Below, piece by piece: positions 1 to 33,704 of a DNA stretch of 64,000 bases. The DNA is taken from the IMG/VR virus record IMGVR_UViG_641509434_000001, positions 1-64,000 of that record. One strand, 5' to 3'. A program made the position numbers and the translations under genes. The notes below the pieces were generated by a model, which saw nothing but the letters and a program-made list of their open reading frames with translations, searched no databases and was not told where the DNA came from. This stretch comes from a virus. Taxonomy: Duplodnaviria > Caudoviricetes. How positions within the stretch are numbered: position 1 is the stretch's first letter; every line of letters begins with the position of its first letter.

Positions 1-137
1 TTTAACATACAAACAAACAAACATATCTTCTTAACCGGTGGGGAGTATGCTTGACTATCGCTGGCCAGATAAGGCTTAAACATCCAGATGAGTAAACATT
101 TGCAAAGTAAAATCAAAGAAAGAAAGAGGTTTAGGAA

Positions 138-266
138 ATGAAACCAAAAGAAATAACGTACTATGACTTGTATCATAATCTAATCACTGACATTTACAGA
201 GAAGGCATACTAGTAGCACGTGTATGTGAAACACCAGATGGCTGGGCTAACTATTATACATATTAA
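138..266 (+). CDS. small early hypothetical protein (42 aa)
   Basis: Translated by hand (MKPKEITYYDLY...); preceded by GAGG/AGGA RBS. Confidence 0.55.
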   Translation: MKPKEITYYDLYHNLITDIYREGILVARVCETPDGWANYYTY

Positions 267-280
267 AGTAGGAGGCTAAA

Positions 281-385
281 ATGAAAGATATTGTCAGTAA
301 AATAGTATATATTACAAGCTATATAGTAGGATTCATTGTTGGCTACACAGATGCAGTAGCTAAGAGAATGCTTAAAGAAAAGTAA
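281..385 (+). CDS. small hydrophobic early protein (34 aa)
   Basis: AGGAGG RBS; MKDIVSKIVYITSYIVGFIVGY... Confidence 0.5.
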   Translation: MKDIVSKIVYITSYIVGFIVGYTDAVAKRMLKEK

Positions 386-396
386 GGAGAATTAAA

Positions 397-663
397 ATGA
401 AAAAGATAGAAGGGCTTATTAAGCCAGCTAAAATCAAAGAAATACTTGAAAACTGTGAAAGTATCATGAAAGAAAATGCTGAGAAAGAAGCAGTAACTAT
501 ATCACAGCGTTATCTAAGAGCAGTAGAAGAAGGATACTCAAAACTCCCCTATTGGACTTCAGAAAATATAGACAATGACTACCTAAGAATAGTCTTGAAT
601 GATAATGGCTATAGCGTAACAGAAGTACAACCTAATGGTGCTTGGCTTATTGGTGTAAAATGA
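397..663 (+). CDS. hypothetical early protein
   Basis: ORF track; AAGGAG RBS. Confidence 0.75.
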   Translation: MKKIEGLIKPAKIKEILENCESIMKENAEKEAVTISQRYLRAVEEGYSKLPYWTSENIDNDYLRIVLNDNGYSVTEVQPNGAWLIGVK

Positions 664-929
664 AGATAGATTATCGTTGACAGTAAAGTCGTTAAAATCT
701 GGAACTAGCCATACTAGCCACAAAATATAAAGGAGGAGATACATTGTTAACTAATAGGAACAACGGAATGTTCAGAGAACTGTTACTAGAATATCTCGTA
801 AAGGTAAAGAAATGCTATCAGAAGTACTTGGACAAATCATTGAATCAACAGCTACAATCATTGGTAAAGCAATTGCAGAAAATGCAAAAGAAATAGCTAA
901 AATGATTATAAAGAATAAGTAATCTAACA

Positions 930-974
930 GGGCTTAGACTGTGTCTTGTAAGTCGATGCGTAAAGCATTAACCC
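930..974 (+). ncRNA. 45-nt structured repeat element, copy 1
   Basis: ggg-ctt-agac/tgt/gtct-tgt-aag-tcga-tgc/gtaaa/gca-ttaa-ccc; three further copies with covarying stems. Confidence 0.7.
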
Positions 975-995
975 ATTAAACTAAGGAGAAATAAA

Positions 996-1382
996 ATGAT
1001 TAAGACTATTAAACGTGAACTATTTGATTAACATGCTGCAGAAATTGTTAGTGCATACATTATAGGTGAGAAAGATATTGCTTGGATCTATGATAAAGAG
1101 TCACCATCACTTGACAAGTTAAAAGCTCATCCTGGAGCTAATCCAGTTATTGAACCAGATCATATTGTAGATATTGACAAAGTAGATGATGACGATGCAG
1201 AATATACTAATGAAGTAGTACCTACTGTCATATATGAAATGTTCTCAGAAGAAGACGATGAATACTTGAATGTACTATGTGACATAATTATCACTGAAGG
1301 TATTCCACTTAAAGATATGGGTCAAATGGGAATTAAGTATGAATATGGTGGCTTAATAAACATGCTTGTAATTGAAGACTAA
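996..1382 (+). pseudogene. acidic 128-codon ORF interrupted by in-frame TAA at 1029-1031
   Basis: AAGGAG RBS and ATG at 996; the frame stays open for 116 codons after the TAA. Confidence 0.6.
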
Positions 1383-1408
1383 CAAATAAAAGAAAGAAGA
1401 GAAATAAA

Positions 1409-1627
1409 ATGGAACAAACAAATTACAAACTTACACAACAAATGGTCGTATCAAAAGAACGTGCACGTAAAGCATTGTTGAGAGCAATTGACAATGCAGG
1501 AGATGGAGGTCGAGTAGAACTTGGAAACGGTATCCGAGTAATCAGTGCAAGCAAAAGTGAAATCACATTAAATGACTTTGGTGAAGAACATCAAATCTTG
1601 AAATTCAATGAAAGAACGGTGAAATAA
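1409..1627 (+). CDS. hypothetical early protein
   Basis: ORF track; tightly packed. Confidence 0.7.
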   Translation: MEQTNYKLTQQMVVSKERARKALLRAIDNAGDGGRVELGNGIRVISASKSEITLNDFGEEHQILKFNERTVK

Positions 1628-1628
1628 A

Positions 1629-2102
1629 ATGACACTTAAACCAATTGAAAATGACATACTCTTAAGAGTTAAACATAGTTTAACATATAGTAATACAGTA
1701 TATCTTGATGAAGCTATGCTTAATAGTGTACTTGAGTTATGGAATGACTATAGTAATTTTGATCCAGATCCTGAATTAATGCGAATTAAACGACTTATAT
1801 TCTATGCTACTACTATTGCAAAGCCAAGTCATGATGACTATAAAATTGAATTAGGTAATGCACATAGAGGAACTATAATGAAAAAGTTACTTAATGTAGA
1901 TCTTAGATATATTACTGATCAAGAAGAACTAGAAAGAAAGTTACTTAAAGTAGGAGAGAAACACAATATGGTAGAAGTAGTAATTAATGATGAAGTAAAC
2001 TTCAAAATGCAAATATCTAAAGGCGACAAACTTACACTGGAAATCACAGACCAAGGTGTAACTAAAGTAAGTCTTAGTGCACCAGAAACTAAAGGAGAAT
2101 AG
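1629..2102 (+). CDS. hypothetical early protein
   Basis: ORF track, 157 aa. Confidence 0.75.
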   Translation: MTLKPIENDILLRVKHSLTYSNTVYLDEAMLNSVLELWNDYSNFDPDPELMRIKRLIFYATTIAKPSHDDYKIELGNAHRGTIMKKLLNVDLRYITDQEELERKLLKVGEKHNMVEVVINDEVNFKMQISKGDKLTLEITDQGVTKVSLSAPETKGE

Positions 2103-2103
2103 T

Positions 2104-2310
2104 ATGTACAAAAATACAAGAGAATTATCACCTGAAATAATTGCATTAGTAAATGACAACTTCAATACTTACTATAACATGCTAATAAGTGATAATAAAT
2201 ATAGTACTATTTCTAGAATTAAGAAAAATGCACCATTTGCATGGTCACTATTGTCAGAAGGTCAAAAGACTAGACTCTATCGCACAGCTAAAAAGCATCG
2301 TAAATTTTAA
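2104..2310 (+). CDS. hypothetical basic protein
   Basis: Start moved to the ATG after AAGGAG. Confidence 0.65.
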   Translation: MYKNTRELSPEIIALVNDNFNTYYNMLISDNKYSTISRIKKNAPFAWSLLSEGQKTRLYRTAKKHRKF

Positions 2311-2320
2311 GGAGAATAAT

Positions 2321-2500
2321 ATGACACTTACACCAGAGACACTCTTTAGACGTGCTAGAAAGAACATGGTTAAAGCATTTGAAAAAGATCATACTAGTAA
2401 AGAACTAGATAAACTTGCTCAACTTAAGTTTGAATCTAACTGGCTTGGACTTACAGTTCAACAAAAAGCAACAGTTATCATGGTACTAGAAGGAGAATAA
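2321..2500 (+). CDS. hypothetical protein
   Basis: Start moved to the ATG after AAGGAG. Confidence 0.65.
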   Translation: MTLTPETLFRRARKNMVKAFEKDHTSKELDKLAQLKFESNWLGLTVQQKATVIMVLEGE

Positions 2501-2501
2501 A

Positions 2502-2849
2502 ATGGCAGACTTAACAAACACAATTAAAAGTGTACTTGGTACACATGATCTATCAAAAATCAACTTAGATGACTTAACATTAATCTTGGTTAATGCTATT
2601 GAAGATTCAGAAACAGATGACAAATCTTCTCATGAACTTGTATTAGAACAAGTAGAAGAATTAGTATTCAAATCTTCAGATAAAGAAGTTCAATTAAAAG
2701 CAGTTGCTAGCTTACCTGTTCCAGTATTTAATATGGTACAAGAAGATCTACACATGAATGGCTTTGAAAGACTTGCTAAAGATAGAGTATATGACTTAAA
2801 AGATGCTAAAGTAATAGTAACAGAAAATGGAGTATTTTATGCAGAATGA
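2502..2849 (+). CDS. hypothetical acidic protein
   Basis: AAGGAG RBS, 115 aa. Confidence 0.75.
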   Translation: MADLTNTIKSVLGTHDLSKINLDDLTLILVNAIEDSETDDKSSHELVLEQVEELVFKSSDKEVQLKAVASLPVPVFNMVQEDLHMNGFERLAKDRVYDLKDAKVIVTENGVFYAE

Positions 2850-3087
2850 AACTAACATTGTGTTTAACACACTAGGTATGACACCAGAAGAACTCAAACA
2901 ATGTGTAGAAGATACATGTAAGTTAACTTCAATTAACTACATAGAAGTACAAATCATTGAACAACCTAACTATAGAGGTAACATCTCTGCAGTTAGATTG
3001 ACTATACCTTATGCTGAGTACATAGATGAAATAGTCTATCAAGTAACAACTGACATTAAACTTGCTGAAAACATGAAGAAAGACTAA
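2839..3087 (+). CDS. hypothetical protein
   Basis: GGAG RBS before ATG 2839. Confidence 0.65.
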   Translation: MQNETNIVFNTLGMTPEELKQCVEDTCKLTSINYIEVQIIEQPNYRGNISAVRLTIPYAEYIDEIVYQVTTDIKLAENMKKD

Positions 3088-3105
3088 ACATGATAATGCA
3101 AAATA

Positions 3106-3114
3106 TGTTATAAT
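3106..3114 (+). promoter_or_regulatory. host sigmaA extended -10 promoter
   Basis: TGtTATAAT; predicted +1 near 3121 coincides with the first base of structured element copy 2. Confidence 0.55.
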
Positions 3115-3120
3115 TAATAT

Positions 3121-3164
3121 AGGCTCTGGAATATCCACTTAAGTCGCTGCATAAGCAATAACCT
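3121..3164 (+). ncRNA. 45-nt structured repeat element, copy 2 (44 nt)
   Basis: agg-ctc-tgga/ata/tcca-ctt-aag-tcgc-tgc/ataa/gca-ataa-cct. Confidence 0.7.
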
Positions 3165-3193
3165 GCCACTATAGTTCAAGGAAGGACTAGAAA

Positions 3194-3367
3194 ATGAAAC
3201 ATCTTAAAACAATCATCGCAGTAGCAACATTAACAGTATGTTTATGGTCATTAGTAACGGCTATACTTCAAGCAGCACTGTTCATTGTAACTATGATAAT
3301 CGTAGGTTTGGCATTGATACAATTAGTATTCTTTGCATTAGTAAAACCAAGAAAAGCAACACATTAA
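3194..3367 (+). CDS. small membrane protein (57 aa)
   Basis: Not in ORF track; AAGGA RBS; MKHLKTIIAVATLTVCLWSLVTAILQAALFIVTMIIVGLALIQLVFFALVKPRKATH. Confidence 0.7.
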   Translation: MKHLKTIIAVATLTVCLWSLVTAILQAALFIVTMIIVGLALIQLVFFALVKPRKATH

Positions 3368-3380
3368 GGAGAGAACAATC

Positions 3381-4796
3381 ATGGCAAATGTTAAAGAATT
3401 ACAAGAAGCATACGAACAAGGGACACCATTAATGACTGATGCAGCATATGATGTATTAGTTGGGGACAATGAAGAATTTACTGAGTTGGAAGATGAAACA
3501 TATGTCATCAAACATGCAGTATTCATGGGAACATGCCCAAAGACACGAAATGTAAAAGAATTTAAGCTGTACTGTAAAGGCTTGCTTGGCACAACTAATG
3601 TAGTATTCCAACCTAAGTTTGATGGAGTATCTGGAGAACTTATCGTTGAACATGGTAAAATCACAGCAATCTCATCACGTGGTAATGGAAACTTCGGTCA
3701 AGACTTATCTGACTTAAAAGACATATTATTCAATGACGTAGTAATTATGCCAACAGTTAGAGCTATCTATGGTGAGTTTGTATGGCGTAATGACAACCCA
3801 TCACAAAAAGATAGAAACTTAGTATCTGGATATCTTAACAAGAAAGTTCATAATAAAGAACCTCATTTGGACTTCATTGCATATAAAGCAATTGATTCAA
3901 ATGGTAGAGTTATGGACTTCATGCAAAGTCAATTATATACAACTGGCATCAAATGGTCTGACTGTGCAATCTTAACAGATGAATTAGAAATTCCTAACTT
4001 CGATGGTAGATACCCAGACATCAAACGTGATGGTACAATTATTAAGAACAGTGTTGATATATTTGCACTTAAGCCAGAACCTGAAGCTGGTATTACTACA
4101 ATTACTGGAGTTACTTGGAAGAAATGTAAATCTAAATTCTCAGCAACTGCTCAACTTGAACCAGTAACTATTGGTGCAGTAAATGTATCTTCAGTAACAT
4201 TGCCACTATCTTACATAAAAGATATGGACTTAATGATTGGCGACAAAGTAATGATTAGTCGTAGAGGAGATGTAATTCCTTGTATTGAATTCTTGGTAGA
4301 ACATACAGAAGAATCAAGTCCAATCATAAATGATTCTAAATGTGAATACTGTGGTGGACACTTCCATTTATATGGTAAGAAATTACTATGTGAAAATGAA
4401 AATTGTGTAAGTTACTTAGTTGACTATGAAAATAAAGTACTAGAAACTATGATGAGTAAAGTCAAAGGTGCTAATACTAAATGGTTCATGACTGAAGCTA
4501 AAGGCAATCCAGGAATGATTCTTGAAAGTATCATGAACAATATGATTCTTGGTAATACAGTTAAACGTAGTGAACAATTTGACAAAGGAGTTAAGTATCT
4601 CACAGATACAGAAGACAAGTACAAACTATCATTGTTATTATTTGATATTGATGGACTATCTGGTAAACGACTTGATAAGTATGCAGCAATGACTACATAT
4701 GAACCAGGAGACAAATACATGGAAGGTGTAGCTCAACAACTAATGAATAACAAAATCAATGAATTTAACAAATTCTTAGTAGGAGAAACTAAATAA
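3381..4796 (+). CDS. ligA: NAD+-dependent DNA ligase (compact)
   Basis: YEQGTPLMTDAAYD (domain Ia), KFDG adenylation motif, SRGNG, GDKVMISRRGDVIP (OB fold), CxxC...CxxxxC Zn finger. Confidence 0.85.
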   Translation: MANVKELQEAYEQGTPLMTDAAYDVLVGDNEEFTELEDETYVIKHAVFMGTCPKTRNVKEFKLYCKGLLGTTNVVFQPKFDGVSGELIVEHGKITAISSRGNGNFGQDLSDLKDILFNDVVIMPTVRAIYGEFVWRNDNPSQKDRNLVSGYLNKKVHNKEPHLDFIAYKAIDSNGRVMDFMQSQLYTTGIKWSDCAILTDELEIPNFDGRYPDIKRDGTIIKNSVDIFALKPEPEAGITTITGVTWKKCKSKFSATAQLEPVTIGAVNVSSVTLPLSYIKDMDLMIGDKVMISRRGDVIPCIEFLVEHTEESSPIINDSKCEYCGGHFHLYGKKLLCENENCVSYLVDYENKVLETMMSKVKGANTKWFMTEAKGNPGMILESIMNNMILGNTVKRSEQFDKGVKYLTDTEDKYKLSLLLFDIDGLSGKRLDKYAAMTTYEPGDKYMEGVAQQLMNNKINEFNKFLVGETK

Positions 4797-5350
4797 TGAC
4801 AAATAAATTACGTATTGCAGAACTTGCTGAAGGCGAGGAACTGGCTAACCCTAATGCAAAAATCTTAGAAGAGATTAATGTAAAAGATCGAGACTTCAGC
4901 AAGTTAGTCTTATTGAAAGGAGATCCATCATATGAACATATTAGCGAGTGGTTAATTAGACATAAAGAAGACAAAGACTTACTTGACTTAATCAAAGTAA
5001 CTCCAACTATTAAGGATAAGATTAAGAAAAGTAAGAATTTTATGTCAGGAACAGTTATATTCGAAGCACGAGATGCAATGGATGAACTAGAATTCTTAAG
5101 ACAAAGAAGTATGAAAGATCTAGTATTTGTAATCTATCGTGCAACACCAAATGGACATAGACCAATGTTGGAATATGGAAATATCTATGAAGGAAGATAC
5201 TATAATATGTCATCTAAAATCATGGAAGACTTAGAAGAATATCTAGGTCGAGTAGAAACAAACAATGCCAATGGGATAGTAACTGTTATGCCAAATAGCA
5301 AATATACATTGGAAGAATTTAAAGACGTGCTTAACAGCTGGGTAAATTAA
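4796..5350 (+). CDS. hypothetical protein upstream of RNA polymerase 1
   Basis: 184-aa ORF coupled to the ligase (TAATG). Confidence 0.75.
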   Translation: MTNKLRIAELAEGEELANPNAKILEEINVKDRDFSKLVLLKGDPSYEHISEWLIRHKEDKDLLDLIKVTPTIKDKIKKSKNFMSGTVIFEARDAMDELEFLRQRSMKDLVFVIYRATPNGHRPMLEYGNIYEGRYYNMSSKIMEDLEEYLGRVETNNANGIVTVMPNSKYTLEEFKDVLNSWVN

Positions 5351-5376
5351 GATAATATTAGAAAGATCATAAGGAA

Positions 5377-7209
5377 ATGACAAGTTATATTGAACTATCA
5401 CTCAAATTTGAAGAAGGCGTAATCAAATCAGGAAGCAATATGGATCTAATCAGAGAAAATGCATTAAATGACTATGATAGATATATTGCTTATACAAAAG
5501 ACATTCATGATATTCGTGCAATTAAGACTCTACAAGAGTTCTCAATTCTTGCCGATTATGATACTGGTGTGGTAACGTCTGTAGTAGATGCAATATATAA
5601 AATATTTGCAAGAAGTGAAGCACGTAGAATCTCAGCATTATATTGCTATCTTAAAGGTCTAGAAGAAAGAGGTATTCATGCAGTACTTGTTACTTCTGGT
5701 AAGAATTATGCAGTATATAACTCAGATACAATTTCATCAGTTTGCTATACATCAGTTGAAAGCGAAAGTAAACTATCTGAAGTATATGACGAACTTGGAA
5801 TTAACACTCGAGTATATGAGGTAATCGCAGATGCACAAGGAACATCAACAGAACTCAGAATAGGTAGCATTGATGCTTGTTATTGTGCAAGAAAAATTCT
5901 TAAAGATTTCTTCCCACATATTATTACTGTAATGTATGTTGCAGGTAAAGAAATTGAACTGTATGATATTCCAGAATTTGGACTTCCAAAAGTGGAACAA
6001 AGAGTAGTTATCAAGAAACCAAAGATCTCATCATCAGTACGAGAACTATTATCAGAATCTTATGACATGGACTTCTTACATCAACTTGAAGATCAAATTG
6101 GGGAGTTTAGTCATAAAGGAACTCCACTAAAAGGTCAATTCTTCTATGACTATCGTGGAAGAATCTACTGGCAAGGTAACATCAACTATCAAGGTGAAGC
6201 AGAAAATCGTGACTTGGAAGTTGAAGGAGGAGAATGCTGGGAATATGATGCAACATGCTCAGGTATTCAACTAGGTTCTCTACTATCTAACAATGTCAAA
6301 ATGATGAAACAATGTAATGTCATAGATACTGGGGAAGGCAAACAAGATGCTTATCACTATATCTCAACTAAGACATGTGAAGACTTCGGATATGGTACAA
6401 ACTTTGGAATCACCAAACCTGTATATCATATTACAGACGAAGAACTCAAAGAGAACAAAGACGGCGAATGGGTAGAACCTAAGAAAATGGCAAGAACTAT
6501 TTGTAAGAAACCTCTTATGTTATTGCCTTATGGTGCAGCTGCTCAAACTCTCATTGGTAGTTCTAAAGCTGCCGCAAGAGAATACTATACTGATGTAAGT
6601 GCAACAGTACATGTATTCTCAGAAGATGATGCTAAACAACTTGCTAAAGATGTCTACAAAACAGTGAAGAAAGAAATCAATCGAGAAGCAACTTATAAAG
6701 TAATTCTTGATAACTTCATTTCAGTAGAAACATTGGAAATCAATGGTAAGGAGAAAGGTCAGTATGTATCTTGGAAAACTCCAGATGGGCTTGAAGTTAA
6801 CTCATATTCTAAAGTGGGAATACGAGAAGTAAGTGCAATGGACAAAGATAGCTTACTGCATGATAAGAAACTTACTAAGATTACACTTATTCTAGACGGA
6901 GTAGAATATAGTAAGAAAGTATCATACACATCTGGATCTAACATCAAGTTCTTCAAGAACAATGTTCCAAATGTAGGACAATTAGTTCCAAACTTTATTC
7001 ACAGCTTAGATGCAACTGCATTACGATTTGTAAGTCGTAAACTTATTGAACAAAAGATTCCAGTTGCAGTTATTCATGACTGTGTAATTGTACCTAAACG
7101 TGTAACACAAGATCATATATCTGCATTGTTCAGAGAAGCATATCAATTCATTGCTGACTACTTCGGAGTAGATGTAACAGTAACTGGAGCGATTGTCTTC
7201 CCAGAATAG
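5377..7209 (+). CDS. T7-family single-subunit RNA polymerase 1
   Basis: DYRGRIY, motif A YDATCSGIQ, motif B RTICKKPLMLLPYG, PNFIHSLDA, motif C VIHDC. Confidence 0.93.
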   Translation: MTSYIELSLKFEEGVIKSGSNMDLIRENALNDYDRYIAYTKDIHDIRAIKTLQEFSILADYDTGVVTSVVDAIYKIFARSEARRISALYCYLKGLEERGIHAVLVTSGKNYAVYNSDTISSVCYTSVESESKLSEVYDELGINTRVYEVIADAQGTSTELRIGSIDACYCARKILKDFFPHIITVMYVAGKEIELYDIPEFGLPKVEQRVVIKKPKISSSVRELLSESYDMDFLHQLEDQIGEFSHKGTPLKGQFFYDYRGRIYWQGNINYQGEAENRDLEVEGGECWEYDATCSGIQLGSLLSNNVKMMKQCNVIDTGEGKQDAYHYISTKTCEDFGYGTNFGITKPVYHITDEELKENKDGEWVEPKKMARTICKKPLMLLPYGAAAQTLIGSSKAAAREYYTDVSATVHVFSEDDAKQLAKDVYKTVKKEINREATYKVILDNFISVETLEINGKEKGQYVSWKTPDGLEVNSYSKVGIREVSAMDKDSLLHDKKLTKITLILDGVEYSKKVSYTSGSNIKFFKNNVPNVGQLVPNFIHSLDATALRFVSRKLIEQKIPVAVIHDCVIVPKRVTQDHISALFREAYQFIADYFGVDVTVTGAIVFPE

Positions 7210-7219
7210 TCTTTAACTC

Positions 7220-7264
7220 AGGCTTTGGTAAGACCATGTAAGTCGATGCGTAACGCACTAACCT
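7220..7264 (+). ncRNA. 45-nt structured repeat element, copy 3
   Basis: agg-ctt-tggt/aag/acca-tgt-aag-tcga-tgcg/taa/cgca-ctaa-cct. Confidence 0.7.
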
Positions 7265-7288
7265 AATAAAGAAAGAAGAGAAAATAAA

Positions 7289-7897
7289 ATGGCAAAACAT
7301 ACTAAACAAACTAACAAATCTAACAAGATGCTTAAAGTACTATCAATTACTATTTGTAGTATTATTGTTGTAACAGCTGGAGTATTTCTAGCTATCAACT
7401 TAACTTCTCCTGGCAAGACTCCAACTAAGTCTTTCCATACTACACAAAGTAGTACTAAACCAAGTTCAACTACTGAAGAATCTAACCCAACTGAGTCTAC
7501 TAATGAAAAGTCAGTTCAATCGCAGGGATCAGATGTAACAACAAGAGAAGAATCTACAGCAGAATCTTCTAAACTTGCTGAATACAAAGACGATGCACTA
7601 TCTACTTATAGTGTTGTCTATACTGATTCTAGATATATTGTATCTGCAAATGGTAAAGGACAATACTTTGTAACATCAGCAACTGGTGAAGATGTACTTA
7701 GAAGTGCTCGAGTACAAGAGTGGGTATTCCTTCTTAAAGAGATGGGAGTACAAGACTTAGGTACTATTGATCAATCTAAAATGAATGATATGGTTACTGG
7801 ACTTTCAGTAAACATAAATGAACCATTTAAACCATCTGCTGGACCTGTATACATCTATACTGATAACACGCCTGCGGCATATTCATTAGAAAATTAA
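7289..7897 (+). CDS. membrane-anchored protein with S/T-rich linker (possible superinfection exclusion)
   Basis: Basic N-terminus, one TM helix, S/T/E-rich spacer; function is inference. Confidence 0.6.
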   Translation: MAKHTKQTNKSNKMLKVLSITICSIIVVTAGVFLAINLTSPGKTPTKSFHTTQSSTKPSSTTEESNPTESTNEKSVQSQGSDVTTREESTAESSKLAEYKDDALSTYSVVYTDSRYIVSANGKGQYFVTSATGEDVLRSARVQEWVFLLKEMGVQDLGTIDQSKMNDMVTGLSVNINEPFKPSAGPVYIYTDNTPAAYSLEN

Positions 7898-7908
7898 GGA
7901 GAATAATA

Positions 7909-8106
7909 ATGACAAAGAAATATACATTAGTTGGAATTAGCAGTAATGCATTTGCAGTAATGGAATATGTAACGCGATGCATGATAAAAGAAGGAAAATC
8001 AAGGGTACAAATAAAAGAATACAGGAAAGATGCAACTAGTTCAAACTATGACCACCTTCTTAGTGTTTCAGTAGCAATGATTACAAGGTTGAATAAAGCT
8101 ATCTAG
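7909..8106 (+). CDS. conserved small phage protein
   Basis: LVGxxxNAF...Y..DA.S.NYDHLL pattern, recognised from phage hypothetical proteins. Confidence 0.65.
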   Translation: MTKKYTLVGISSNAFAVMEYVTRCMIKEGKSRVQIKEYRKDATSSNYDHLLSVSVAMITRLNKAI

Positions 8107-8130
8107 AAACAAAGGTAACTAATAATATAG
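8104..8130 (+). promoter_or_regulatory. phage RNAP promoter (27-bp family)
   Basis: tagaaacaaaggtaactaataatatag; its 3' end overlaps the start of structured element copy 4. Confidence 0.55.
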
Positions 8131-8173
8131 GCTTCAGTTAGACTGTGTAAGTCGATGTGCAACTCACTAACCT
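8129..8173 (+). ncRNA. 45-nt structured repeat element, copy 4
   Basis: agg-ctt-cagt/tag/actg-tgt-aag-tcga-tgtg/caa/ctca-ctaa-cct. Confidence 0.7.
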
Positions 8174-8300
8174 ATTAAATAAAGAGGAGTTAACAAATCG
8201 CAAATGAAAATCAATGCAAAAATTAAATCTCATATTCAAAGAGAAATACTAAACGTTGTCGATAAAATTATTAACAATCAATCAGAAGGAAATAAATGTA

Positions 8301-8531
8301 ATGAAATGTGAAAATTGTAACCATAATAAAATGCTTCATGTAGATGATGGACGACTTGAAAATGGATCAGGTTTCGATAATTATATGTGTCCAGTTTGTT
8401 TAACTAAATGTTATATTAAATTCTTATCAAATAAGATGGTAGCTAAAAATTGGACATTTAAACAACAATATCTAATTCGCAACGAAGATCTTGTCCGTGA
8501 AGCATATCATAATGGTCAAACAGGTTGGTGA
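8301..8531 (+). CDS. small Zn-ribbon protein
   Basis: CENC...CPVC. Confidence 0.65.
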   Translation: MKCENCNHNKMLHVDDGRLENGSGFDNYMCPVCLTKCYIKFLSNKMVAKNWTFKQQYLIRNEDLVREAYHNGQTGW

Positions 8532-8666
8532 AAACCAAGCATTAGTAGTAGAAGTATCTTATGACGAAAACAACAAGCGTACACTTAAGACACAATGCTT
8601 GGATACATTCTTTATGGGAGAAAAGTCATAAGATACATTGGGTATCTACAATACGGAGGAAGTAAA

Positions 8667-8915
8667 ATGAAACTAGAAGAAATAGAACAAGTAGTTAATG
8701 ATATCAGATTTGAAGAAGTTAGAGAGTCTGAACTTGCTCAAATGATTTATGCATTCAACAGTAAACAACTAGATATGGAAGAAAGAACTACTATTACTTC
8801 AAATGGCTATAGCTGCTATGTTTCAACTCAAGCATTCTTAGCATTAGTTACTAGAGAATTAGAAGAAGTCAAAAATAGAATTGTCACACTTAAAGCAAAG
8901 ATTGGAGTAGAATAA
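8667..8915 (+). CDS. hypothetical protein
   Basis: GGAGG RBS before ATG 8667. Confidence 0.65.
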   Translation: MKLEEIEQVVNDIRFEEVRESELAQMIYAFNSKQLDMEERTTITSNGYSCYVSTQAFLALVTRELEEVKNRIVTLKAKIGVE

Positions 8916-8970
8916 TGCTAGTTAGAAAGCTTAAAAGTGCTACTATAGCATGTGAAGGGAGCTTACTGTA

Positions 8971-9150
8971 ATGAAAAAGATCTGGAACTTTATAGCTGTA
9001 TTTGTATTGACACTACTATTCGGTATGTTTTTAACTAATATTACAGACTACTTTGAGGCTCATGCAGACATCTCAGAATGGATAATCTCAATTGCAGTAT
9101 CCGCATATGTAGCTATTTTGTGGATCGTAGAAAATAGAAAGAAGAACTAG
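8971..9150 (+). CDS. small 2-TM membrane protein (59 aa)
   Basis: MKKIWNFIAVFVLTLLFGMFL...WIISIAVSAYVAILWIV; GGAG RBS. Confidence 0.65.
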   Translation: MKKIWNFIAVFVLTLLFGMFLTNITDYFEAHADISEWIISIAVSAYVAILWIVENRKKN

Positions 9151-9334
9151 AATGAACTTATCAACAAATGACATTTACAGTGATGAAACTGTAGCAAAAT
9201 GCTATGTATGTAATAAGCATCAAATTGGAGACAATAGAGAACTATATGAGTCAGGTTGGCTACACTTTGCTGATACAGACGATTATATATGTAAATAATG
9301 TAGGATTAGATTGAGTAAAAAGAGGACAAATAAA

Positions 9335-9577
9335 ATGGACAAATCATTTATGAACATCGCATCGCTTAAACTTGCTGAATATCTTGGCTGTGAACAAGAA
9401 GACATTTATGTAGTATGGATGAGTAAGAATCTTCAAAACATCAAAGGTATGTTCTCAAGTGATGTACCTGCTGCAAAAGGCATGTACTATGAGCTTACTT
9501 ACAATGGAGACAAGAAAGAACTCTACATTGATAGTTATAAGAAACAAAAGAACGAATGCATTAAAGTAGAATTATAG
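9335..9577 (+). CDS. DUF6275-like phage protein
   Basis: YVVW.SK.LQN.KG...GMYYELTYNGDKKELYIDSYKK signature. Confidence 0.75.
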   Translation: MDKSFMNIASLKLAEYLGCEQEDIYVVWMSKNLQNIKGMFSSDVPAAKGMYYELTYNGDKKELYIDSYKKQKNECIKVEL

Positions 9578-9587
9578 GAGAAATGAA

Positions 9588-9890
9588 ATGACTGAATTTG
9601 ATGCACAACAAGAATTGCTGTATGCTATTGAAACTTCAACTATAACAATGACTTCAGCAATCAACCTTCTAGAAAAAACAATGCCAAAAAGGCCAGAACA
9701 AAAAGTTTCTGGATACATAGATTTATTGTCTAGACTTAACGAGTCCGTAGGTCGCAATAATATGCTTGCACAGTTAATTAAGTCTGATGAACGTAAGAAA
9801 ATGGAAGAGAAACTTGAAGCAGAACGTAAGAAGAAAAAGAAACTTGAAGAAGCTGCTATCATTAATAATTTTAAAGAGGGGACTAAATAA
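9588..9890 (+). CDS. hypothetical coiled-coil protein
   Basis: GGAG RBS. Confidence 0.7.
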   Translation: MTEFDAQQELLYAIETSTITMTSAINLLEKTMPKRPEQKVSGYIDLLSRLNESVGRNNMLAQLIKSDERKKMEEKLEAERKKKKKLEEAAIINNFKEGTK

Positions 9891-10189
9891 TGCCAACCAA
9901 TCTACCAAAAGCTAATTTGCCTTACTATGCAAACCAGCATGGTATTCAACTAAAAGAATTCATGACAGAGTATGACAAATTCTTATACACTCAAGGATGT
10001 TATTGGTCTGCATTGAAGTATCACATTCGTGCTGGTAAGAAAGAAGGCGAATCACTTGCTAAAGATATTAAGAAACGTGATGACTACATCAATGACTTGA
10101 TTGCATTGGACTGGTTAAATAATAAAGAAGAAATCATTGAAGAACTTGAATACACCAATAACAAATTTGAGAACTATAGAGGAAAATAA
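9890..10189 (+). CDS. DUF3310-like protein
   Basis: ALKYHIRAGKKEGESLAKDIKK matches the KY..RAGxK...D..KA signature. Confidence 0.65.
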   Translation: MPTNLPKANLPYYANQHGIQLKEFMTEYDKFLYTQGCYWSALKYHIRAGKKEGESLAKDIKKRDDYINDLIALDWLNNKEEIIEELEYTNNKFENYRGK

Positions 10190-10190
10190 C

Positions 10191-10643
10191 ATGAATAATT
10201 CTAATAATGAGGACTTGAGTATAAGTAAATTAAAATTACTGGAAACACATGATTATGTAGCTCCATCCTTAGTAAATGCATATATTGATGATAGAGCTAA
10301 GCGTAAACGCTTCGTAAATTACTGTAATTCAAATCATATACCTACAAATATTTATCACAAGAAAGAATGCAACAAAGAACTAGTAAAACATATTCTTAGT
10401 ACAACTCCAGTAGATATAACTAATCTAATTAAGTCTGAAATAAGCCCGGAACTTATAGATAACTTGACACTAGATCAATATATAGACCTTGCTTTAGATC
10501 CAAATTGCACTAAAGTATATCTTAAGGAGTTTGCTTTTAATGAACACTTCGCAGTAAGTAGCTTTACTCCTAATAGGCTCTCTGTGTTCAATGCAAGATT
10601 CAGGGTACACGATGATATAGTTGACTGGCGACAAAAGCACTGA
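10191..10643 (+). CDS. hypothetical protein
   Basis: GAGG RBS before ATG 10191. Confidence 0.65.
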   Translation: MNNSNNEDLSISKLKLLETHDYVAPSLVNAYIDDRAKRKRFVNYCNSNHIPTNIYHKKECNKELVKHILSTTPVDITNLIKSEISPELIDNLTLDQYIDLALDPNCTKVYLKEFAFNEHFAVSSFTPNRLSVFNARFRVHDDIVDWRQKH

Positions 10644-10668
10644 GATACAAAAATAACTATTATATAAA
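10642..10668 (+). promoter_or_regulatory. phage RNAP promoter (27-bp family)
   Basis: gagatacaaaaataactattatataaa. Confidence 0.6.
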
Positions 10669-10692
10669 TAAAGAAAGAAGAGAATTAATAAA

Positions 10693-11733
10693 ATGGCAGA
10701 ATTAGTAACAGCATCAGTTGAAGAAGCAGTAAATGCAACATTTAAGTACTTCGACGAATTTGAAAACAATGATAATCTTAAGTATAATGAAAGATTTGTG
10801 CCTATCTTCATATCTAGACCTGGAGTAGGTAAGTCAGCATCAATTGCTGCTAAATCAGCAGAACGTGGTCGTAAGTTAATCACATTGAATCTTGCATGTA
10901 TTGAACCAGTAGATATCTTAGGACTTGGTGCACGTGAGAAAATCAATGGTAAATGGATAACTAGAACAGCCTTGCCTGAGTGGGCAATGAGTGCACTACA
11001 AGGCAATTGTGATATTCTTGTTGATGAATTCAACAACTGTCAACCAGAAACTCTTGCAGGTTTCCAAATCATGTTCTCAGCATTTGAAATCAATGGTTGG
11101 CAACTTCCAAAGACAACACACATTATTGGTGCATGCAACCCTCCTGGGGATGATGCATTAGTTGCTGCTAATCAATTATCTGGTGCCTTCCGTAGACGTT
11201 TAAGTTTCATTCCAATTGCTGATACATTTGAATGGGTTGAAACTAAGTACAAATTCAAAGTTCCACTTGACTTCCGTAAACAAGATATGCTACCTATCTC
11301 AGAATACATCAACTATCAAGGGGTCAACTCTGCCAATGTAGATGATATGATGAGAATATGTGAAACTAGCTCACTTACTAACAAAGAGAAATACTTATTA
11401 GTAGAAGGACTTGGATCTAAAGTACGAGCTCTTGCCTCTAAACTTGGTAAACTTACTGAAGAAATGATTGAATATGAAGTACTTCGTTCTGACGACGGCT
11501 TCACTTATAAAGACTGGGTATCTGATCCTGTAGATGAACCTGAAATCATGACTCAAATGGGCTGGATGAATCGTAGACTTACAAGTACTAGTACATATTC
11601 CCGTGCTAAAGGCTTCGTAGGTAGAATCAAGAATGTTCAAGTATATAATGCTGCATTTGACATATTAAATGAAAAATTCGAAGCAGATATTGTAACAGAT
11701 GACACTAAACTGTCTAGAATGGAAACTAAGTAA
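10693..11733 (+). CDS. MoxR-type AAA+ ATPase
   Basis: Walker A SRPGVGKS, Walker B ILVDEFN, sensor-1 GACNP, arginine finger AFRRR. Confidence 0.85.
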   Translation: MAELVTASVEEAVNATFKYFDEFENNDNLKYNERFVPIFISRPGVGKSASIAAKSAERGRKLITLNLACIEPVDILGLGAREKINGKWITRTALPEWAMSALQGNCDILVDEFNNCQPETLAGFQIMFSAFEINGWQLPKTTHIIGACNPPGDDALVAANQLSGAFRRRLSFIPIADTFEWVETKYKFKVPLDFRKQDMLPISEYINYQGVNSANVDDMMRICETSSLTNKEKYLLVEGLGSKVRALASKLGKLTEEMIEYEVLRSDDGFTYKDWVSDPVDEPEIMTQMGWMNRRLTSTSTYSRAKGFVGRIKNVQVYNAAFDILNEKFEADIVTDDTKLSRMETK

Positions 11734-11735
11734 TC

Positions 11736-13550
11736 ATGGCTGTACCGCACGTTAAACGTAACTTTAAATATGGGGATTTATATAATTCAGAAGCTGAGGT
11801 ATTAGATTCGAACAAAGAGGACGTTGTACTCTCTTATGAAGATCTAGCAGCTTACAAAATTGGTAGAGACTATCTTAATTTCATATTTGAAAATGACTTT
11901 ACTATTCATCTTATGTATAAATTCCCAGATGGTGATCCTCAAATCGCTTATACTACATTAGATACAAAAGATATGTATATCAATGGGAACTATCCTACAA
12001 ACATCATATCATCATTGCTGAAACATGAACTAGGTCACTTCATGATATTTGGAACTGACCAACCTTACTCAAAAGACGATTACTCAGTTAGATCCTTAAT
12101 TGTTAAGGAAGTCTACAGTAGATTCAATTTAAAGAAATATTCAGTAGAATTCTTGATGCATATTGAAAATGTAATTCAAGATATTATCATTGAAACGCTA
12201 AACTACCCTGAATGTGTATGTGAAACATTTCATATATATGGTCTAGATAAGAAAGGTGTCAAACATCAACCTTACTTAGATCCAATATCAGATGTAGTTA
12301 AAGAAGCTCTTAAGACTCAACTAGCATTAGCTGAAGATAAAAGATCTTATGTTGACAGTGAAATTGCTCAGAAGATGAAAGATTTCTTGGAAGAAAGCTT
12401 AAATGATGCTATTGCTACTATGAATGGTATCTCAGATAGATATATAAAGAGAGAAGCTAAAGATCAACTTAAAAGTCAAATCACAAGAATTAAGAATAAA
12501 ATCAATAAAAAAGATGATAAACTTAAGGAACTTCAAAGACTTAAAAATGCTGGAAGACCAATACCTGATAAGTTGATAGATAAAGTCAAAAACCAACTTG
12601 AAGAACTTAAAGATAAAGTATCTAATGAAGCACTAAAGGATGAACTTAGAAGAATTGTAGATAGAAATAAGAATAGACGTGATAAGGAAATTGCTAAACT
12701 GGAAGAAACTAAGAAAGCTCTTCAACACAACCCTGGACCACCTGAACATATAGATGAACGTGAGGGAGATGGTCATTCTTGCTCAACTTACATTCCTTCA
12801 AAAGACTCTATCAAAATCTCAAATAAAATGTATAAGATGTCTTATACTAAACTTAAGAACAAATTGTTCAAGTTGAGACAAATCGAGTCTCCTAAGACAT
12901 TTGATAAGGGAATGGCATCTGACAAAGATGGTAATATCTTGACACCTAAGAGAGAAAATACTTACACTAGAACTTCTAAACTTGAATATGACAATACTGA
13001 CATGTTACAAGGTAAGAAGAAGAAACGTTCATCAGGTGTATCTATTTTGATTGGACTAGATGTATCTGGCTCAATGAACAGTCAATGGGTATCTAAATTC
13101 AATGACACTGTTAAACTTATCAAATCTGTGTCTAAGTCACTTCAAATTCAAGAACCTGTAATGTTTACTTATGGTGACAGGCTTGGTACTGTATCTAGTA
13201 GTGAACACACAATTCAAGAAGCTATCAGAGAAAGATCTGGTGGTGGAGGTAATGCCTTCGGTAAAGTATATGAACAACTTATTCGAGAAGCACCAATATC
13301 AACATACACGGAAATCATACTGATAACCGACTGTGGTGACAATCTAGGTTGGGACATTCAATCTCCAATTAAAGGTGTAAGTGAGAAAGAACTTAAGATG
13401 CACTGTTCTGTACTTGACACTGATGGAATGATTGCTGACCGACCAGACCAACTATGGCAAAAAGATAAATGGTCATACTACAATACTAACAACATAAATA
13501 TGTCTTCTATTGCTAAGAATATAGCTAAGACAATCAGAACTAACAAATAA
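11736..13550 (+). CDS. HExxH metallopeptidase-like / coiled-coil / vWA protein (DUF2201-like)
   Basis: LLKHELGH; central K/E coiled coil; MIDAS motif DVSGSM and ITD; adjacent to MoxR. Confidence 0.8.
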   Translation: MAVPHVKRNFKYGDLYNSEAEVLDSNKEDVVLSYEDLAAYKIGRDYLNFIFENDFTIHLMYKFPDGDPQIAYTTLDTKDMYINGNYPTNIISSLLKHELGHFMIFGTDQPYSKDDYSVRSLIVKEVYSRFNLKKYSVEFLMHIENVIQDIIIETLNYPECVCETFHIYGLDKKGVKHQPYLDPISDVVKEALKTQLALAEDKRSYVDSEIAQKMKDFLEESLNDAIATMNGISDRYIKREAKDQLKSQITRIKNKINKKDDKLKELQRLKNAGRPIPDKLIDKVKNQLEELKDKVSNEALKDELRRIVDRNKNRRDKEIAKLEETKKALQHNPGPPEHIDEREGDGHSCSTYIPSKDSIKISNKMYKMSYTKLKNKLFKLRQIESPKTFDKGMASDKDGNILTPKRENTYTRTSKLEYDNTDMLQGKKKKRSSGVSILIGLDVSGSMNSQWVSKFNDTVKLIKSVSKSLQIQEPVMFTYGDRLGTVSSSEHTIQEAIRERSGGGGNAFGKVYEQLIREAPISTYTEIILITDCGDNLGWDIQSPIKGVSEKELKMHCSVLDTDGMIADRPDQLWQKDKWSYYNTNNINMSSIAKNIAKTIRTNK

Positions 13551-15986: not shown

Positions 15987-18449
15987 TTGGTAGATTTAAA
16001 CAAATTATCTGGGTTTGGGCAAAGAACTCTAGATAGCATATTCACAAGATCAAAACTAGAAAGTATGGTTGAAGAATATGAAAAAACAAAAATGAAAGAA
16101 ACTATTGAAGATGCTGTAATTGATGAATTGCTATCTATTAGTAGCGTACCTACAGGAACAGTATCAATTCCTAACTTGAAATTGTCTTCTTCTAAAGTAG
16201 GAGATGAAGAATGGGAAGTAGAGATTAGCGGTGTTATTCAATCAACTATAGTTAAGAAAGGTATATGGTCTCCTTCGATAATGGTAAAACTAGAAGGCGT
16301 AGTCCCTAGAGAAAGACCAGTTATCAATGGTAAAATACCAGCATCTTCAGTAAAAGAAGACGAAGTAAACTCTGATTTATCAAACCCTAGATTAAGTACA
16401 TTAGGTCTGTCTAGAGATGAAGTATCTAACATAAAGAAATTTCTTGACAAAGAGGGCATTAGATATAAAGACAATTCTGACATGGGTCTGAATCAATATA
16501 TTGAATTACGAGACATTCCTATGTCATCTGACTTATCTTCATTAGGTACATATTCAGGTAGAATAACTTACCCAACAACGCAAGATTCTACAGACATGGG
16601 GATTACCCCCTTTGATCCTAGAACCCTTACATTGTCAAACCCCACAATTGAATCTATTGCTGAGGGTAGCAAAGAAAAATTAGCTAACTCAAAAGCAGCT
16701 TCTATTATGTCTGACACGCCATTGAAAGTTTCTGAAGAATATGCAAAATCATTACCAGATGTTGTAAGTGGTAATGCTGATGCTGTACACAGTCAACTGA
16801 CAAAACTTAGGTCTGATGACTTTAAGCGACTTAAGAATGCAGCAACTGAGTTAGAACCTTACATGAAAGATTCTAAATTTGCGGAAGCAGCAAGTAAAGG
16901 TAAGTCATTTGAGTATCAAGAACAACTGTCTGATAGTGACAATAAGAAAATTGAAGCAATTAGAAAAAGATACAGTATTGATGCTGATGATTTGAAGAAG
17001 ATTGCTATGTTTGACAAGAACAATCTTAAACTTTCAGATGGTCGTAATCTTAACATTCTTACTGATACAGAATCTTTTAGTGAGTCTAAATCATTATCAA
17101 ATAATGCAAGACGTAAAAGTGACAATAAGATGAACTTCTCACTTCACACTATTAATGGTGAACGTATGTATGTTTATGGTGGTGACTCATTCTTGGACAA
17201 TACAGACTTACGGGAAAATATTGCATTTGAACCTAATAAGAAAAAAGCAAAACAAATTGCTTTATCTGAGAAAAAGATGAAAGAATATAACAGAAATCTT
17301 AATGAAGCATTAGGTGGAGCTCTTATTGAGGATAAAGTCATCAATGGTGGTAAACATAAATATCGCAGTGATGAACTTGAAAACTTTGCAAAAGACTTCA
17401 TGAAATCTGATATTGACTATGATAATCTTTCTCCACGTATTAAGACACTTATTAATGCTAAGAAGAAAGCAGAAAAAGGTGAGGTTGATACATCTACAGC
17501 AGTCACACTTGATGCGACCTTCTCTGGACTTGTTGTAACGTCAGGTATTCTTGGTCGTAAAGATGGACTTGATAAGGTCAACATTGTACCAGAAGGTGAA
17601 AAAGTAGGAGAAATGCATGACTTATATACTGAAGTCGGTAAAGACTTAATTAAAGATCTTACTGAGTATGGTATGGATAGTCATGCAGCACGTAAATTAG
17701 TTAAACCAGGTGTCATGCCTGCAATGTATAACTCTTCTCAACGTGCACGTGCTACAAAACTTAGGGAAGAACTTAAAGACTATTTCCATGAGAAAACTGA
17801 CATGAGTGAATCTGAGATTAAGGAAGCAATTACTAAATTGAATCCAAACATTCAGAAGACAACTCAAGATGCGACAACTATTCTTATGGGTAAAGTCAAT
17901 CCTAAAAGTATCATTGGTTTGAATAAGAAAGGCATTGTTAAATTATACAAACCAAAAGAAGGTACAGAACATGAAGGAGAAGTAGAAGAAATTAAGAACC
18001 CTACTGAAGATGACTTATTTCAAGTTTCGGCTTATAAGATTAAGCATCCAGATGGCAAAGTTTCATATTCTGCTAGAACTGAAAACAAAGTATCTAGAAC
18101 TGTTGATGGTAAAATCTCAGTATCAAAAGATGCACTTTCAGTACCTTATGCTAAAGTCAATAAGATTGATAAGAATGGTAAAGCAAAATCACGTGATAAT
18201 ATGGGACTATTGATGAACTCAATGGCTCCAGGTATTGCACGTCACATGGACTCATATGTAGCTTCTACAGTTATCGAGAAAATGCATGACAAAGGTGTCC
18301 CAATCGTCACAGTTCATGACGCGATGATTGTTCCAGTATATGCAATGAACACTCTTAAAGATACTTACAATGACGCAGTCAACTCTCTATATAAATATAC
18401 TGGTTCAGATATCAGAGTGGATGCTAGAAATAACTTGAGTGTGGAATAA
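15987..18449 (+). CDS. second single-subunit RNA polymerase (divergent; candidate virion RNAP)
   Basis: GGAGG + TTG start; NGERMY (DxRGRxY equivalent), motif A TLDATFSG, motif B ARKLVKPGVMPAMYN, APGIARHMDS, motif C VTVHDA. Confidence 0.85.
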   Translation: MVDLNKLSGFGQRTLDSIFTRSKLESMVEEYEKTKMKETIEDAVIDELLSISSVPTGTVSIPNLKLSSSKVGDEEWEVEISGVIQSTIVKKGIWSPSIMVKLEGVVPRERPVINGKIPASSVKEDEVNSDLSNPRLSTLGLSRDEVSNIKKFLDKEGIRYKDNSDMGLNQYIELRDIPMSSDLSSLGTYSGRITYPTTQDSTDMGITPFDPRTLTLSNPTIESIAEGSKEKLANSKAASIMSDTPLKVSEEYAKSLPDVVSGNADAVHSQLTKLRSDDFKRLKNAATELEPYMKDSKFAEAASKGKSFEYQEQLSDSDNKKIEAIRKRYSIDADDLKKIAMFDKNNLKLSDGRNLNILTDTESFSESKSLSNNARRKSDNKMNFSLHTINGERMYVYGGDSFLDNTDLRENIAFEPNKKKAKQIALSEKKMKEYNRNLNEALGGALIEDKVINGGKHKYRSDELENFAKDFMKSDIDYDNLSPRIKTLINAKKKAEKGEVDTSTAVTLDATFSGLVVTSGILGRKDGLDKVNIVPEGEKVGEMHDLYTEVGKDLIKDLTEYGMDSHAARKLVKPGVMPAMYNSSQRARATKLREELKDYFHEKTDMSESEIKEAITKLNPNIQKTTQDATTILMGKVNPKSIIGLNKKGIVKLYKPKEGTEHEGEVEEIKNPTEDDLFQVSAYKIKHPDGKVSYSARTENKVSRTVDGKISVSKDALSVPYAKVNKIDKNGKAKSRDNMGLLMNSMAPGIARHMDSYVASTVIEKMHDKGVPIVTVHDAMIVPVYAMNTLKDTYNDAVNSLYKYTGSDIRVDARNNLSVE

Positions 18450-30785: not shown

Positions 30786-31385
30786 ATGTTCGATAAAGAT
30801 GCAATCAAAAAGGACATGCTTAAACTAGCAGAACAATTTGAAGGACATCCTGTTGACTATGATGCAAAGGATGGTCCTCAATGTGCTGACTTTTCTGCAT
30901 TCCTTATTAAAAATACTACTGGTAAAACTATCTGGGGTAATGCAATTGAAACAGATAACAAAGAAAATATCAACATTATCAATGAAAACCCAAATGTTGA
31001 AGCCAAACATGTTGACCCACATGAAATTGCTGAAGGTGACTTGTTAGTCGAATCTAATAGTAACCCGAAGGTCGGTCACGTTTCTCTTATTGATAAAATT
31101 CATGACGATGGTACAGTAACTGTCTATGAACAAAACTTGGATGGTGATGCTACCGGCCCAAACCCACTGGGTGTACAAAAGCATACTAGAAAGTTAGCTG
31201 ACTTTGATGGCTGGGGTAGAGTAATGGGTGCATTACGTATCGAAGCTATACCTGAAGAGAAACAATGGGTACGCAACCCTAATTCTCGTCGTAACGGGCA
31301 ACTGCAACGTGCGGGTAGCCGACAAGGTGGAGCCTATTCTAGTATCACTAGTCTATATGAACAGTTAGGTATGACGTTTAAGTAA
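30786..31385 (+). CDS. CHAP-family cysteine peptidase with C-terminal SRQGG tail
   Basis: DYD..DGPQCADF, IWGNA, GHVSLI, YEQN. Confidence 0.85.
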   Translation: MFDKDAIKKDMLKLAEQFEGHPVDYDAKDGPQCADFSAFLIKNTTGKTIWGNAIETDNKENINIINENPNVEAKHVDPHEIAEGDLLVESNSNPKVGHVSLIDKIHDDGTVTVYEQNLDGDATGPNPLGVQKHTRKLADFDGWGRVMGALRIEAIPEEKQWVRNPNSRRNGQLQRAGSRQGGAYSSITSLYEQLGMTFK

Positions 31386-31388
31386 TCA

Positions 31389-33701: not shown

Positions 33702-33704
33702 TCT

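Follow-up and report, generated by a model that had tools for sequence, protein, structure and literature searches.

A repeated 45-nucleotide hairpin-forming element in the early region of a KSY1-type phage genome as a candidate 5' leader RNA

Results and Discussion

The DNA analyzed in the current work is a stretch of 64,000 nucleotides (nt) from a virus (Duplodnaviria; Caudoviricetes), corresponding to positions 1 to 64,000 of the IMG/VR record IMGVR_UViG_641509434_000001 and hereafter called the window, the early region of which carries four copies of a 45-nt element combining two short hairpins with conserved linkers. A previous reading of the letters (the original prediction) had located these copies and proposed that they encode an RNA folded as a three-way junction, acting as a self-cleaving or processing motif, an antitermination signal or a 5' stabiliser, or alternatively a DNA hairpin promoter. 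Judged from sequence comparison and folding, the element is a real, selected, lineage-restricted, hairpin-forming repeat without a known family.

The window is treated as Lactococcus phage KSY1 or a near-identical genome, in part because its two matches to PF00940 agree with the two T7-like single-subunit RNA polymerase genes attributed to KSY1 in passages of a 2024 review (PMC11476376), where KSY1 is described as a virulent podovirus and the sole member of the genus Chopinvirus. The first match is the open reading frame (ORF) 5377-7209 and the second (31 bits) is ORF 15987-18449, of 820 amino acids (aa), which corresponds to gp033 as noted in the same passages. KSY1 is an orphan phage, and the control of its gene expression is almost unstudied.

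The four copies and their genomic surroundings

All four copies are located on the + strand, at positions that direct reading and alignment bear out: copy 1 at 930..974 (hairpin 1 formed by 936-939 with 943-946; 61.5 bits against covariance model R1), copy 2 at 3121..3164 (44 nt; 3127-3130 with 3134-3137; 57.2 bits), copy 3 at 7220..7264 (7226-7229 with 7233-7236; 67.9 bits) and copy 4 at 8129..8173 (8135-8138 with 8142-8145; 62.7 bits). Model R1, a covariance model from the four copies such as the original prediction had suggested, was built from the two hairpins alone and searched with filters off, and it separates the copies (57.2-67.9 bits) from everything else in the window, where the next-best match scores 13.6 bits (E 0.31). 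The covariance-model search of the whole 79,232-bp record returned exactly these four + strand copies and none further.

In the four-copy alignment 22 of the 45 columns are invariant, among them GGCT, TAAGTCG and TAACC, the last two containing the linkers (TAAGTCG and TAA) expected to be unchanged. The single indel falls in the hairpin 2 loop of copy 2, which has one base fewer there and is the most divergent of the four. When the spaced pattern GGCT-N14-TAAGTCG-N13-TAACC was searched with at most 3 mismatches, 5 matches were obtained against 0.23 expected, a number reached by 0 of 100 shuffles; four of these are the copies, and the fifth, at 52351 with 3 mismatches, is read as chance. TAAGTCG by itself occurs 10 times against 3.29 expected. 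Copies 3 and 4 are 80% identical across 69 nt, a likeness that extends into the ribosome-binding site (RBS) and defines repeat family D5.

Each copy occupies an intergenic spacer on the coding strand, ending 21 nt (copy 1, ATG 996), 29 nt (copy 2, ATG 3194), 24 nt (copy 3, ATG 7289) or 30 nt (copy 4, ATG 8204, the start of a 35-aa ORF) before a start codon, with an RBS about 10-20 nt downstream of the copy's end; the RBSs after copies 1 and 3 are predicted to be mostly unpaired. The spacer, RBS and start codon that follow copy 1 (975..998, + strand) belong to repeat families D5, D7 and D11, and similar cassettes with an RBS are present after copies 3 and 4 and again at 1378-1425.

The upstream sides of the copies fall into two kinds, both as originally described. 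Copies 1 and 3 start just past stop codons, the former 7 nt beyond that of the 36-aa ORF 812-922 and the latter 10 nt beyond that of the RNA polymerase gene 5377-7209. The small ORF 812-922 looks like the real gene at its position, since the contig consensus of a relative (loose end 860) would place a stop in the overlapping frame 744-896 and keeps 812-922 open. Copies 2 and 4 lie at predicted transcript starts. A host-type promoter-like site at 3085..3114 (+ strand; TAAACA, an 18-nt spacer and a TG-extended TATAAT) has its expected start at base 1 of copy 2; the sequence TGTTATAAT at 3106-3114 ends 7 nt before that copy and is the sole + strand match to TGNTATAAT in the window. Upstream of copy 4, a phage-type promoter core at 8115..8130 (+ strand), a 16-mer with 2 mismatches to the core common to the repeats at 54875 and 54909, has its last base, 8130, at base 2 of the copy; only five + strand sites in the window lie within 2 mismatches of that core, and the region of the 8115..8130 site matches 21/27 positions of a longer promoter consensus (manual count). 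On the basis of these annotations it is unusual that one element heads both predicted primary transcripts and internal cistrons.

With regard to promoters elsewhere, repeat family D4 comprises 34-nt T7-like promoter sequences at 13686, 18886, 47896, 54863 and 54897, of which the last two form a tandem pair, and a weaker member ends at 8130. Similarity to T3/SP6-like promoters downstream of copies 1 and 2 was inspected by eye and rejected, as the spacing does not fit.

A put- or nut-like antitermination RNA, by which the transcribing polymerase is modified, would be compatible with two neighbouring hairpins near a promoter, as in copies 2 and 4. However, a consensus scan of 1-12000 revealed five terminator-like sites, all on the - strand and none on the + strand, which weakens this explanation; moreover, copy 4 follows a phage-type promoter that a single-subunit polymerase would use, and four copies exceed what such systems need. 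Antitermination is the least probable of the roles considered here.

Secondary structure of the element

Hairpin 1 consists of 4 base pairs (bp) and a 3-nt loop, and the claim that its sequence changes while pairing is kept holds in full: four different stem sequences are present, both sides change at 4/4 pairs, and Watson-Crick pairing is found in 16/16 pair-by-copy cells. The observed paired fraction or covariation score was reached by 0 of 500 column shuffles, and control pairings slid out of register gave 28-50% paired cells as compared with 91% for the true register. Complementarity that is retained while the sequence changes demands a folded single strand, and since the sequence of this upper stem differs in every copy, a sequence-specific binder of duplex DNA cannot explain it.

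The remaining helices of the originally proposed structure fared less well. The second stem/loop is present, with a near-invariant sequence, but is weaker than had been implied: 75% of its cells pair, none of its changes is compensatory, two of its pairs never vary and two are broken in one or three copies. The 3-bp outer stem RGG/CCY, described as covarying, does contain one compensatory change (A-U in three copies, G-C in one), although this is the sole such change among four paralogues. The three-way junction is therefore not supported as stated, given its 3-bp outer stem with a single compensatory change and a folding preference for a different structure. In the latter, the invariant GGCUU pairs with AAGUC beneath hairpin 1 to generate a bulged 9-bp hairpin that begins at base 2 (5-bp lower stem, 3-nt bulge, 4-bp upper stem), so that 0-1 bases precede the helix at the 5' end and the UAACCY tail stays single-stranded. 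This bulged hairpin represents the RNAalifold consensus and the minimum-energy fold in 3/4 copies when sequences are folded singly, and forced-fold energies place it below the three-way junction by 1.5-3.8 kcal/mol in 4/4 copies. Covariation neither supports nor refutes the GGCUU/AAGUC pairing, because that pairing never varies. The G3-U24 pair of the bulged hairpin is a wobble in 4/4 copies, which is compatible with the sense RNA but not with its complement. On these folding models we lean towards the bulged hairpin over the three-way junction. Inspection by eye of two further structural candidates led to their rejection: a kink-turn, for which tandem G-A pairs beside the bulge are lacking, and a tRNA-like end, for which there is no shared CCA.

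The junction fold is also what a small self-cleaving RNA would use if it were to cut near its 5' edge and so separate early cistrons. The element's 45 nt lie within the small-ribozyme size range, its junction strands are invariant while its helices vary, one outer-stem pair is compensated, and two copies directly follow stop codons. Nevertheless, the helices are very short, the junction fold is energetically disfavoured in all four copies, and cleavage has no obvious use at the two copies that lie at transcript starts. As regards known ribozymes, the helix order would fit a type III hammerhead, but the strands TGTAAGTCGA and nTAA misfit the hammerhead core when compared by eye, no hammerhead model matched, and no other Rfam ribozyme did so either even at E up to 10 over 800-8400. 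Self-cleavage is accordingly regarded as highly improbable.

A hairpin with a 3-nt loop in which all 16 pairs are Watson-Crick could also form from single-stranded or supercoiled DNA, and might then serve as a promoter for a phage single-subunit polymerase in the manner of the hairpin promoters used by the N4 virion RNA polymerase. The latter likewise comprise small hairpins with 3-nt loops and conserved bases, in a small number of same-strand copies at the left genome end; here, four same-strand copies fall in the first 8.2 kb, around a polymerase gene, the genome has two PF00940 matches, and the N4 geometry, with the loop centre at -11, would put the start in the invariant heptamer. Several differences nonetheless stand against an N4-like promoter. 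The stem is 4 bp long, as opposed to the 5-7 bp needed by N4; the conserved bases run about 20 nt past the putative start, into the second hairpin; conventional promoters already end at the first bases of two copies; and the genome possesses a distinct T7-like promoter family (D4). A virion-type polymerase was not recognised, the 820-aa product of ORF 15987-18449 having no significant similarity to a virion polymerase and no significant match to any solved structure (best polymerase match E 0.8, to a chain named RNAP2). In addition, rifampicin resistance is reportedly seen only in the late stages of KSY1 infection. We give a DNA hairpin promoter a very slim chance.

Relatives and selection on the element

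A search of sequencing runs identified 14 DNA runs (X1-X14), mostly dairy, food and fermentation metagenomes from 9 studies (P1-P9), with 30-56% of the sampled words, and RNA runs X15-X20 with only 5-13%. Four runs from four studies were compared with the window, their contigs covering copies 1-3. No indel is present within copy 1 or copy 3 in any of the four; run X1 has four indels around copy 3, at 7211, 7218, 7273 and 7311, and none within 7220-7264. Copy 2 has lost one hairpin 1 loop base in X5, and in X1 the same loss is accompanied by a T-to-G change immediately upstream of the invariant heptamer. The contigs of all four runs leave the window after 8125, which is 4 nt before copy 4, and continue with an RBS and start codon.

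A further comparison involves metagenome contig L126, the sole relative found in metagenome contigs by means of the polymerase protein, which is related to the window from 6574 onward. Its copy 3 is identical to that of the window at 45/45 positions, while the 34 flanking non-coding columns contain 7 mismatches and 3 gap columns (5 mismatches in the 10-nt upstream spacer; 2 mismatches and 3 gap columns in the 24-nt downstream spacer). With differences spread evenly across the 79 non-coding columns of element and spacers, zero differences in the 45 columns of the element would be expected about once per thousand, a rough estimate that counts the gap as one event. Identity of the element alongside divergence of its spacers indicates that the element is under purifying selection. 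Positions 1-6600 of L126 carry relaxase and MobC genes and a group II intron reverse transcriptase/maturase joined to the phage sequence, the junction being either a chimeric assembly or real.

Contig comparison further shows modular variation of the early region among relatives. One relative has a 412-nt deletion from 993 to 1406, both ends of which lie within repeated RBS sequence. A stretch of about 470-480 nt at 2337-2821, adjoining none of the copies, is swapped in relatives for 215-237 other letters, and about 200 nt at 7879-8092, including ORF 7909-8106, are missing. The segment 996-1382 is a 128-codon frame with a strong RBS and an in-frame TAA at 1029-1031; contigs in three runs have G at 1029 (a Glu codon), and the fourth run is without 993-1406. 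The window's copy of this acidic early gene thus appears to carry a nonsense mutation.

Such variation raises the alternative that the element is a recombination cassette, i.e. an intergenic repeat that spreads together with an RBS and brings about the exchange of modules, with only a minor role as RNA. The places where relatives differ from the window do cluster beside copies 1 and 4 (the 993-1406 deletion and the departures at 8125 in four runs), copies 3 and 4 are alike into the RBS (D5), and the RBS sequences themselves are repeated (D5, D7, D11). The sample of breakpoints is small: copy 1 is next to the one at 993 and copy 4 to the one at 8125, but no copy borders the replacement at 2337-2821. 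A cassette would furthermore not account for complementarity that is maintained while all eight stem positions change, nor for the 45/45 identity in L126 despite diverging spacers, and exact placement at two predicted transcript starts would be unexpected. As described in passages of PMC2839356 and PMC4122927, the promoter-early stem-loop (PeSL) cassettes of T4-type phages are short regulatory repeats of an early, plastic region, situated at module boundaries and mediating gene gain and loss, features that the present element may share; according to the same passages, however, PeSLs combine a strong sigma-70 promoter with a terminator stem-loop, and only copy 2 has such a promoter here. None of the copies has a terminator-like U tract in the + strand scan of 1-12000. 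A pure recombination cassette is considered decidedly unlikely, and if it were the whole explanation the repeat would still document early-gene module exchange among dairy phages.

Searches for known families and homologues

The original prediction did not recognise the element as a member of a known family, and the Rfam search that it proposed agrees: Rfam 15 gave 0 matches in the whole window at gathering thresholds, and at E up to 10 over 800-8400 it gave 7 weak matches, none of which overlaps a copy. In viral contigs, a loose pattern (16 fixed bases, variable gaps) matched at least 114 loci; among the matches listed there are 78 distinct sequences, with one match per contig and most of them inside long open frames. 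When R1 was applied to 100 of these at least 114 loci, the best score was 22.3 bits even though the loci had been pre-selected for the invariant bases, and these matches are read as chance. Stricter patterns had 0 matches in viral contigs, and a third pattern had 2 chance matches, which together with the locus of phage P162 described below yielded a single R1 match, at 10.8 bits. A pattern scan of prokaryote genomes, one per species, returned 0 matches, and when copy 3 was compared by blastn with 50,697 phage records, two partial matches only were returned (E 3 and 9). The polymerase protein search found no relative among viral contigs. Full-text literature searches on KSY1 listed no title or abstract concerned with such an element, the 2007 KSY1 paper lying outside that scope.

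Megablast of 1-12000 detected only a 240-bp gene in common with phages P162 and P118. This segment, 8283-8523, encodes a small Cys-rich protein and is 88% identical in DNA to these Lactococcus phages; the likeness suggests that gene exchange has occurred a short way downstream of copy 4. In P162, the pattern and R1 searches at that locus found no element upstream of the shared gene.

A candidate 5'-leader RNA module

The explanation to which we incline, tentatively and with less than even confidence, is that the element constitutes a new cis-acting 5'-leader RNA module of four early cistrons, serving stability or processing. A leader in the sense RNA is preferred because complementarity is kept, the wobble pair is possible in that strand only, two copies coincide with predicted transcript starts, and the distance to the RBS is short and fixed. 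We infer from the same features that RNA rather than DNA is the active form. The sense transcript would fold from its second base into the bulged hairpin, with GGCUU/AAGUC as lower stem and a stem of free sequence above it, followed by the small second hairpin and the single-stranded UAACCY tail about 10-20 nt before the RBS. In copies 2 and 4 the module would form the extreme 5' end of the primary transcript, so that a hairpin lies within a few bases of the transcript start if the predicted promoters are used. Copies 1 and 3 would be positioned inside a polycistronic early RNA, and their location directly after stop codons suggests that this RNA is cut there; a cut just upstream of either copy would give the same 5' end, and whether these copies possess a 5'-terminal hairpin depends on that predicted cleavage. 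With this end formed, the module would protect the message at its 5' end from 5'-dependent decay, a process carried out in Firmicutes by RNase J1 and 5'-end-dependent endonucleases. How stable the downstream cistron is, and perhaps how well it is translated, would be determined in this way, and a nuclease or binding protein would recognise the surface offered by the invariant unpaired bases. Both the cleavage at copies 1 and 3 and the effect on stability are proposed from the arrangement of the copies.

Known systems offer partial parallels. In T7, one RNase III site lies directly after the polymerase gene, as copy 3 does here. The comparison with the RNase III sites of T7 and SP82 rests on arrangement, not sequence similarity: conserved structured elements are repeated between early cistrons of a lytic phage, and a structured message end is left after cutting. 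RNase III sites are, however, long irregular double-stranded hairpins of about two helical turns, and the best fold of the present element is much shorter, with 5 + 4 bp (at most 9 bp) interrupted by a 3-nt bulge; in addition, two of the copies are at transcript starts, where no cut is needed. A hairpin at the start of a message is a classic means of 5'-end protection in Firmicutes, in which RNase J1 degrades RNA starting at that end. If the predicted promoters of copies 2 and 4 are used, the element would resemble the 5' stabilisers of T7 late-gene leaders and of Bacillus subtilis in having a hairpin at most one base from the 5' end followed by an unstructured spacer and an RBS. It differs from them in occurring inside operons as well and in keeping 22 invariant bases, since such stabilisers function without sequence conservation, and their hairpins are usually the more stable ones. 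The processing of Bacillus phage SP82 early mRNA at RNase III sites and the role of RNase J1 in 5' stability are both treated in parts of PMC4838370. From its sequence, the element seems to represent a new sequence family within the broad, known class of structured elements found in phage leaders and between cistrons.

Several observations weigh against a protective leader. The lower stem is invariant and has no covariation support, and copy 2 has a C in column 6 that breaks one of its pairs. The hairpins are weak (-5.5 to -10.5 kcal/mol) and fold no better than shuffled sequence (z -1.09 to +0.95), and all of the covariation is drawn from four paralogues within one genome. The loop-base loss in copy 2 of X5 and X1 leaves a 10-nt palindrome, a poorer hairpin. 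Since the contigs of four runs diverge from the window 4 nt ahead of copy 4, this copy is absent from that place in those relatives and is dispensable there. Finally, 22 invariant bases are more than a plain protective hairpin needs, implying that something more specific reads the sequence, and the reader of the invariant unpaired bases may be a nuclease, a binding protein or a tertiary fold.

This last point leads to an alternative that overlaps with the leader explanation and differs in purpose, namely that an RNA-binding protein of phage or host recognises the element sequence-specifically as an operator RNA and switches translation or decay of the four early cistrons together, the purpose being to regulate them rather than to protect their 5' ends. 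The covarying stem would act as scaffold and the invariant unpaired bases as contacts, and invariant linkers next to a freely varying stem are indeed a pattern typical of protein-recognised RNAs. The copies end about 10-20 nt before the RBS, and the weak folding energy suggests that a partner is needed. On the other hand, the element does not overlap the RBS, so that occlusion would be indirect, and no RNA-binding or nuclease family was found above cut-off among the early proteins (Pfam, 18 ORFs; PHROGs, 10 ORFs), the only early-ORF family matches being a ligase-like gene, the polymerase gene and one family of unknown function. An operator is rated as rather unlikely.

Returning to the 5'-leader module, two bolder versions may be formulated. 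In the first, the element would represent a new class of very small phage RNA in which catalysis, or the guidance of a dedicated nuclease, would fall to the invariant bases of the junction, giving all early messages the same structured 5' end regardless of whether they begin at a promoter (copies 2 and 4) or are excised from a polycistronic RNA (copies 1 and 3); this is considered very unlikely. In the second, the leader may mimic a region of 16S rRNA in order to capture a ribosome-associated factor, an analogy that starts from the resemblance of the invariant heptamer and pentamer to what we take to be a universally conserved stretch near the 3' end of 16S rRNA. Should the leader explanation be true, a structured, sequence-specific leader common to early messages transcribed by host and by phage would offer a handle on mRNA fate in a Gram-positive host without RNase E, and the same leader, provided that it acts as suggested, could also supply a compact, portable 5' module for expression in lactococci.

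Other repeats in the window

Two repeats outside the early region were recorded. A tandem duplication of about 1.5 kb at 41830-44567, with segments that are 83-98% identical (families D1-D3), may correspond to the duplicated capsid genes mentioned in passages of PMC11476376. A 63-nt repeat at 31383-31445 and 33699-33761 (84% identity; family D10) ends in a TATAAT-containing stretch; judging by this motif, a host-type promoter region may be repeated in this late section of the genome.

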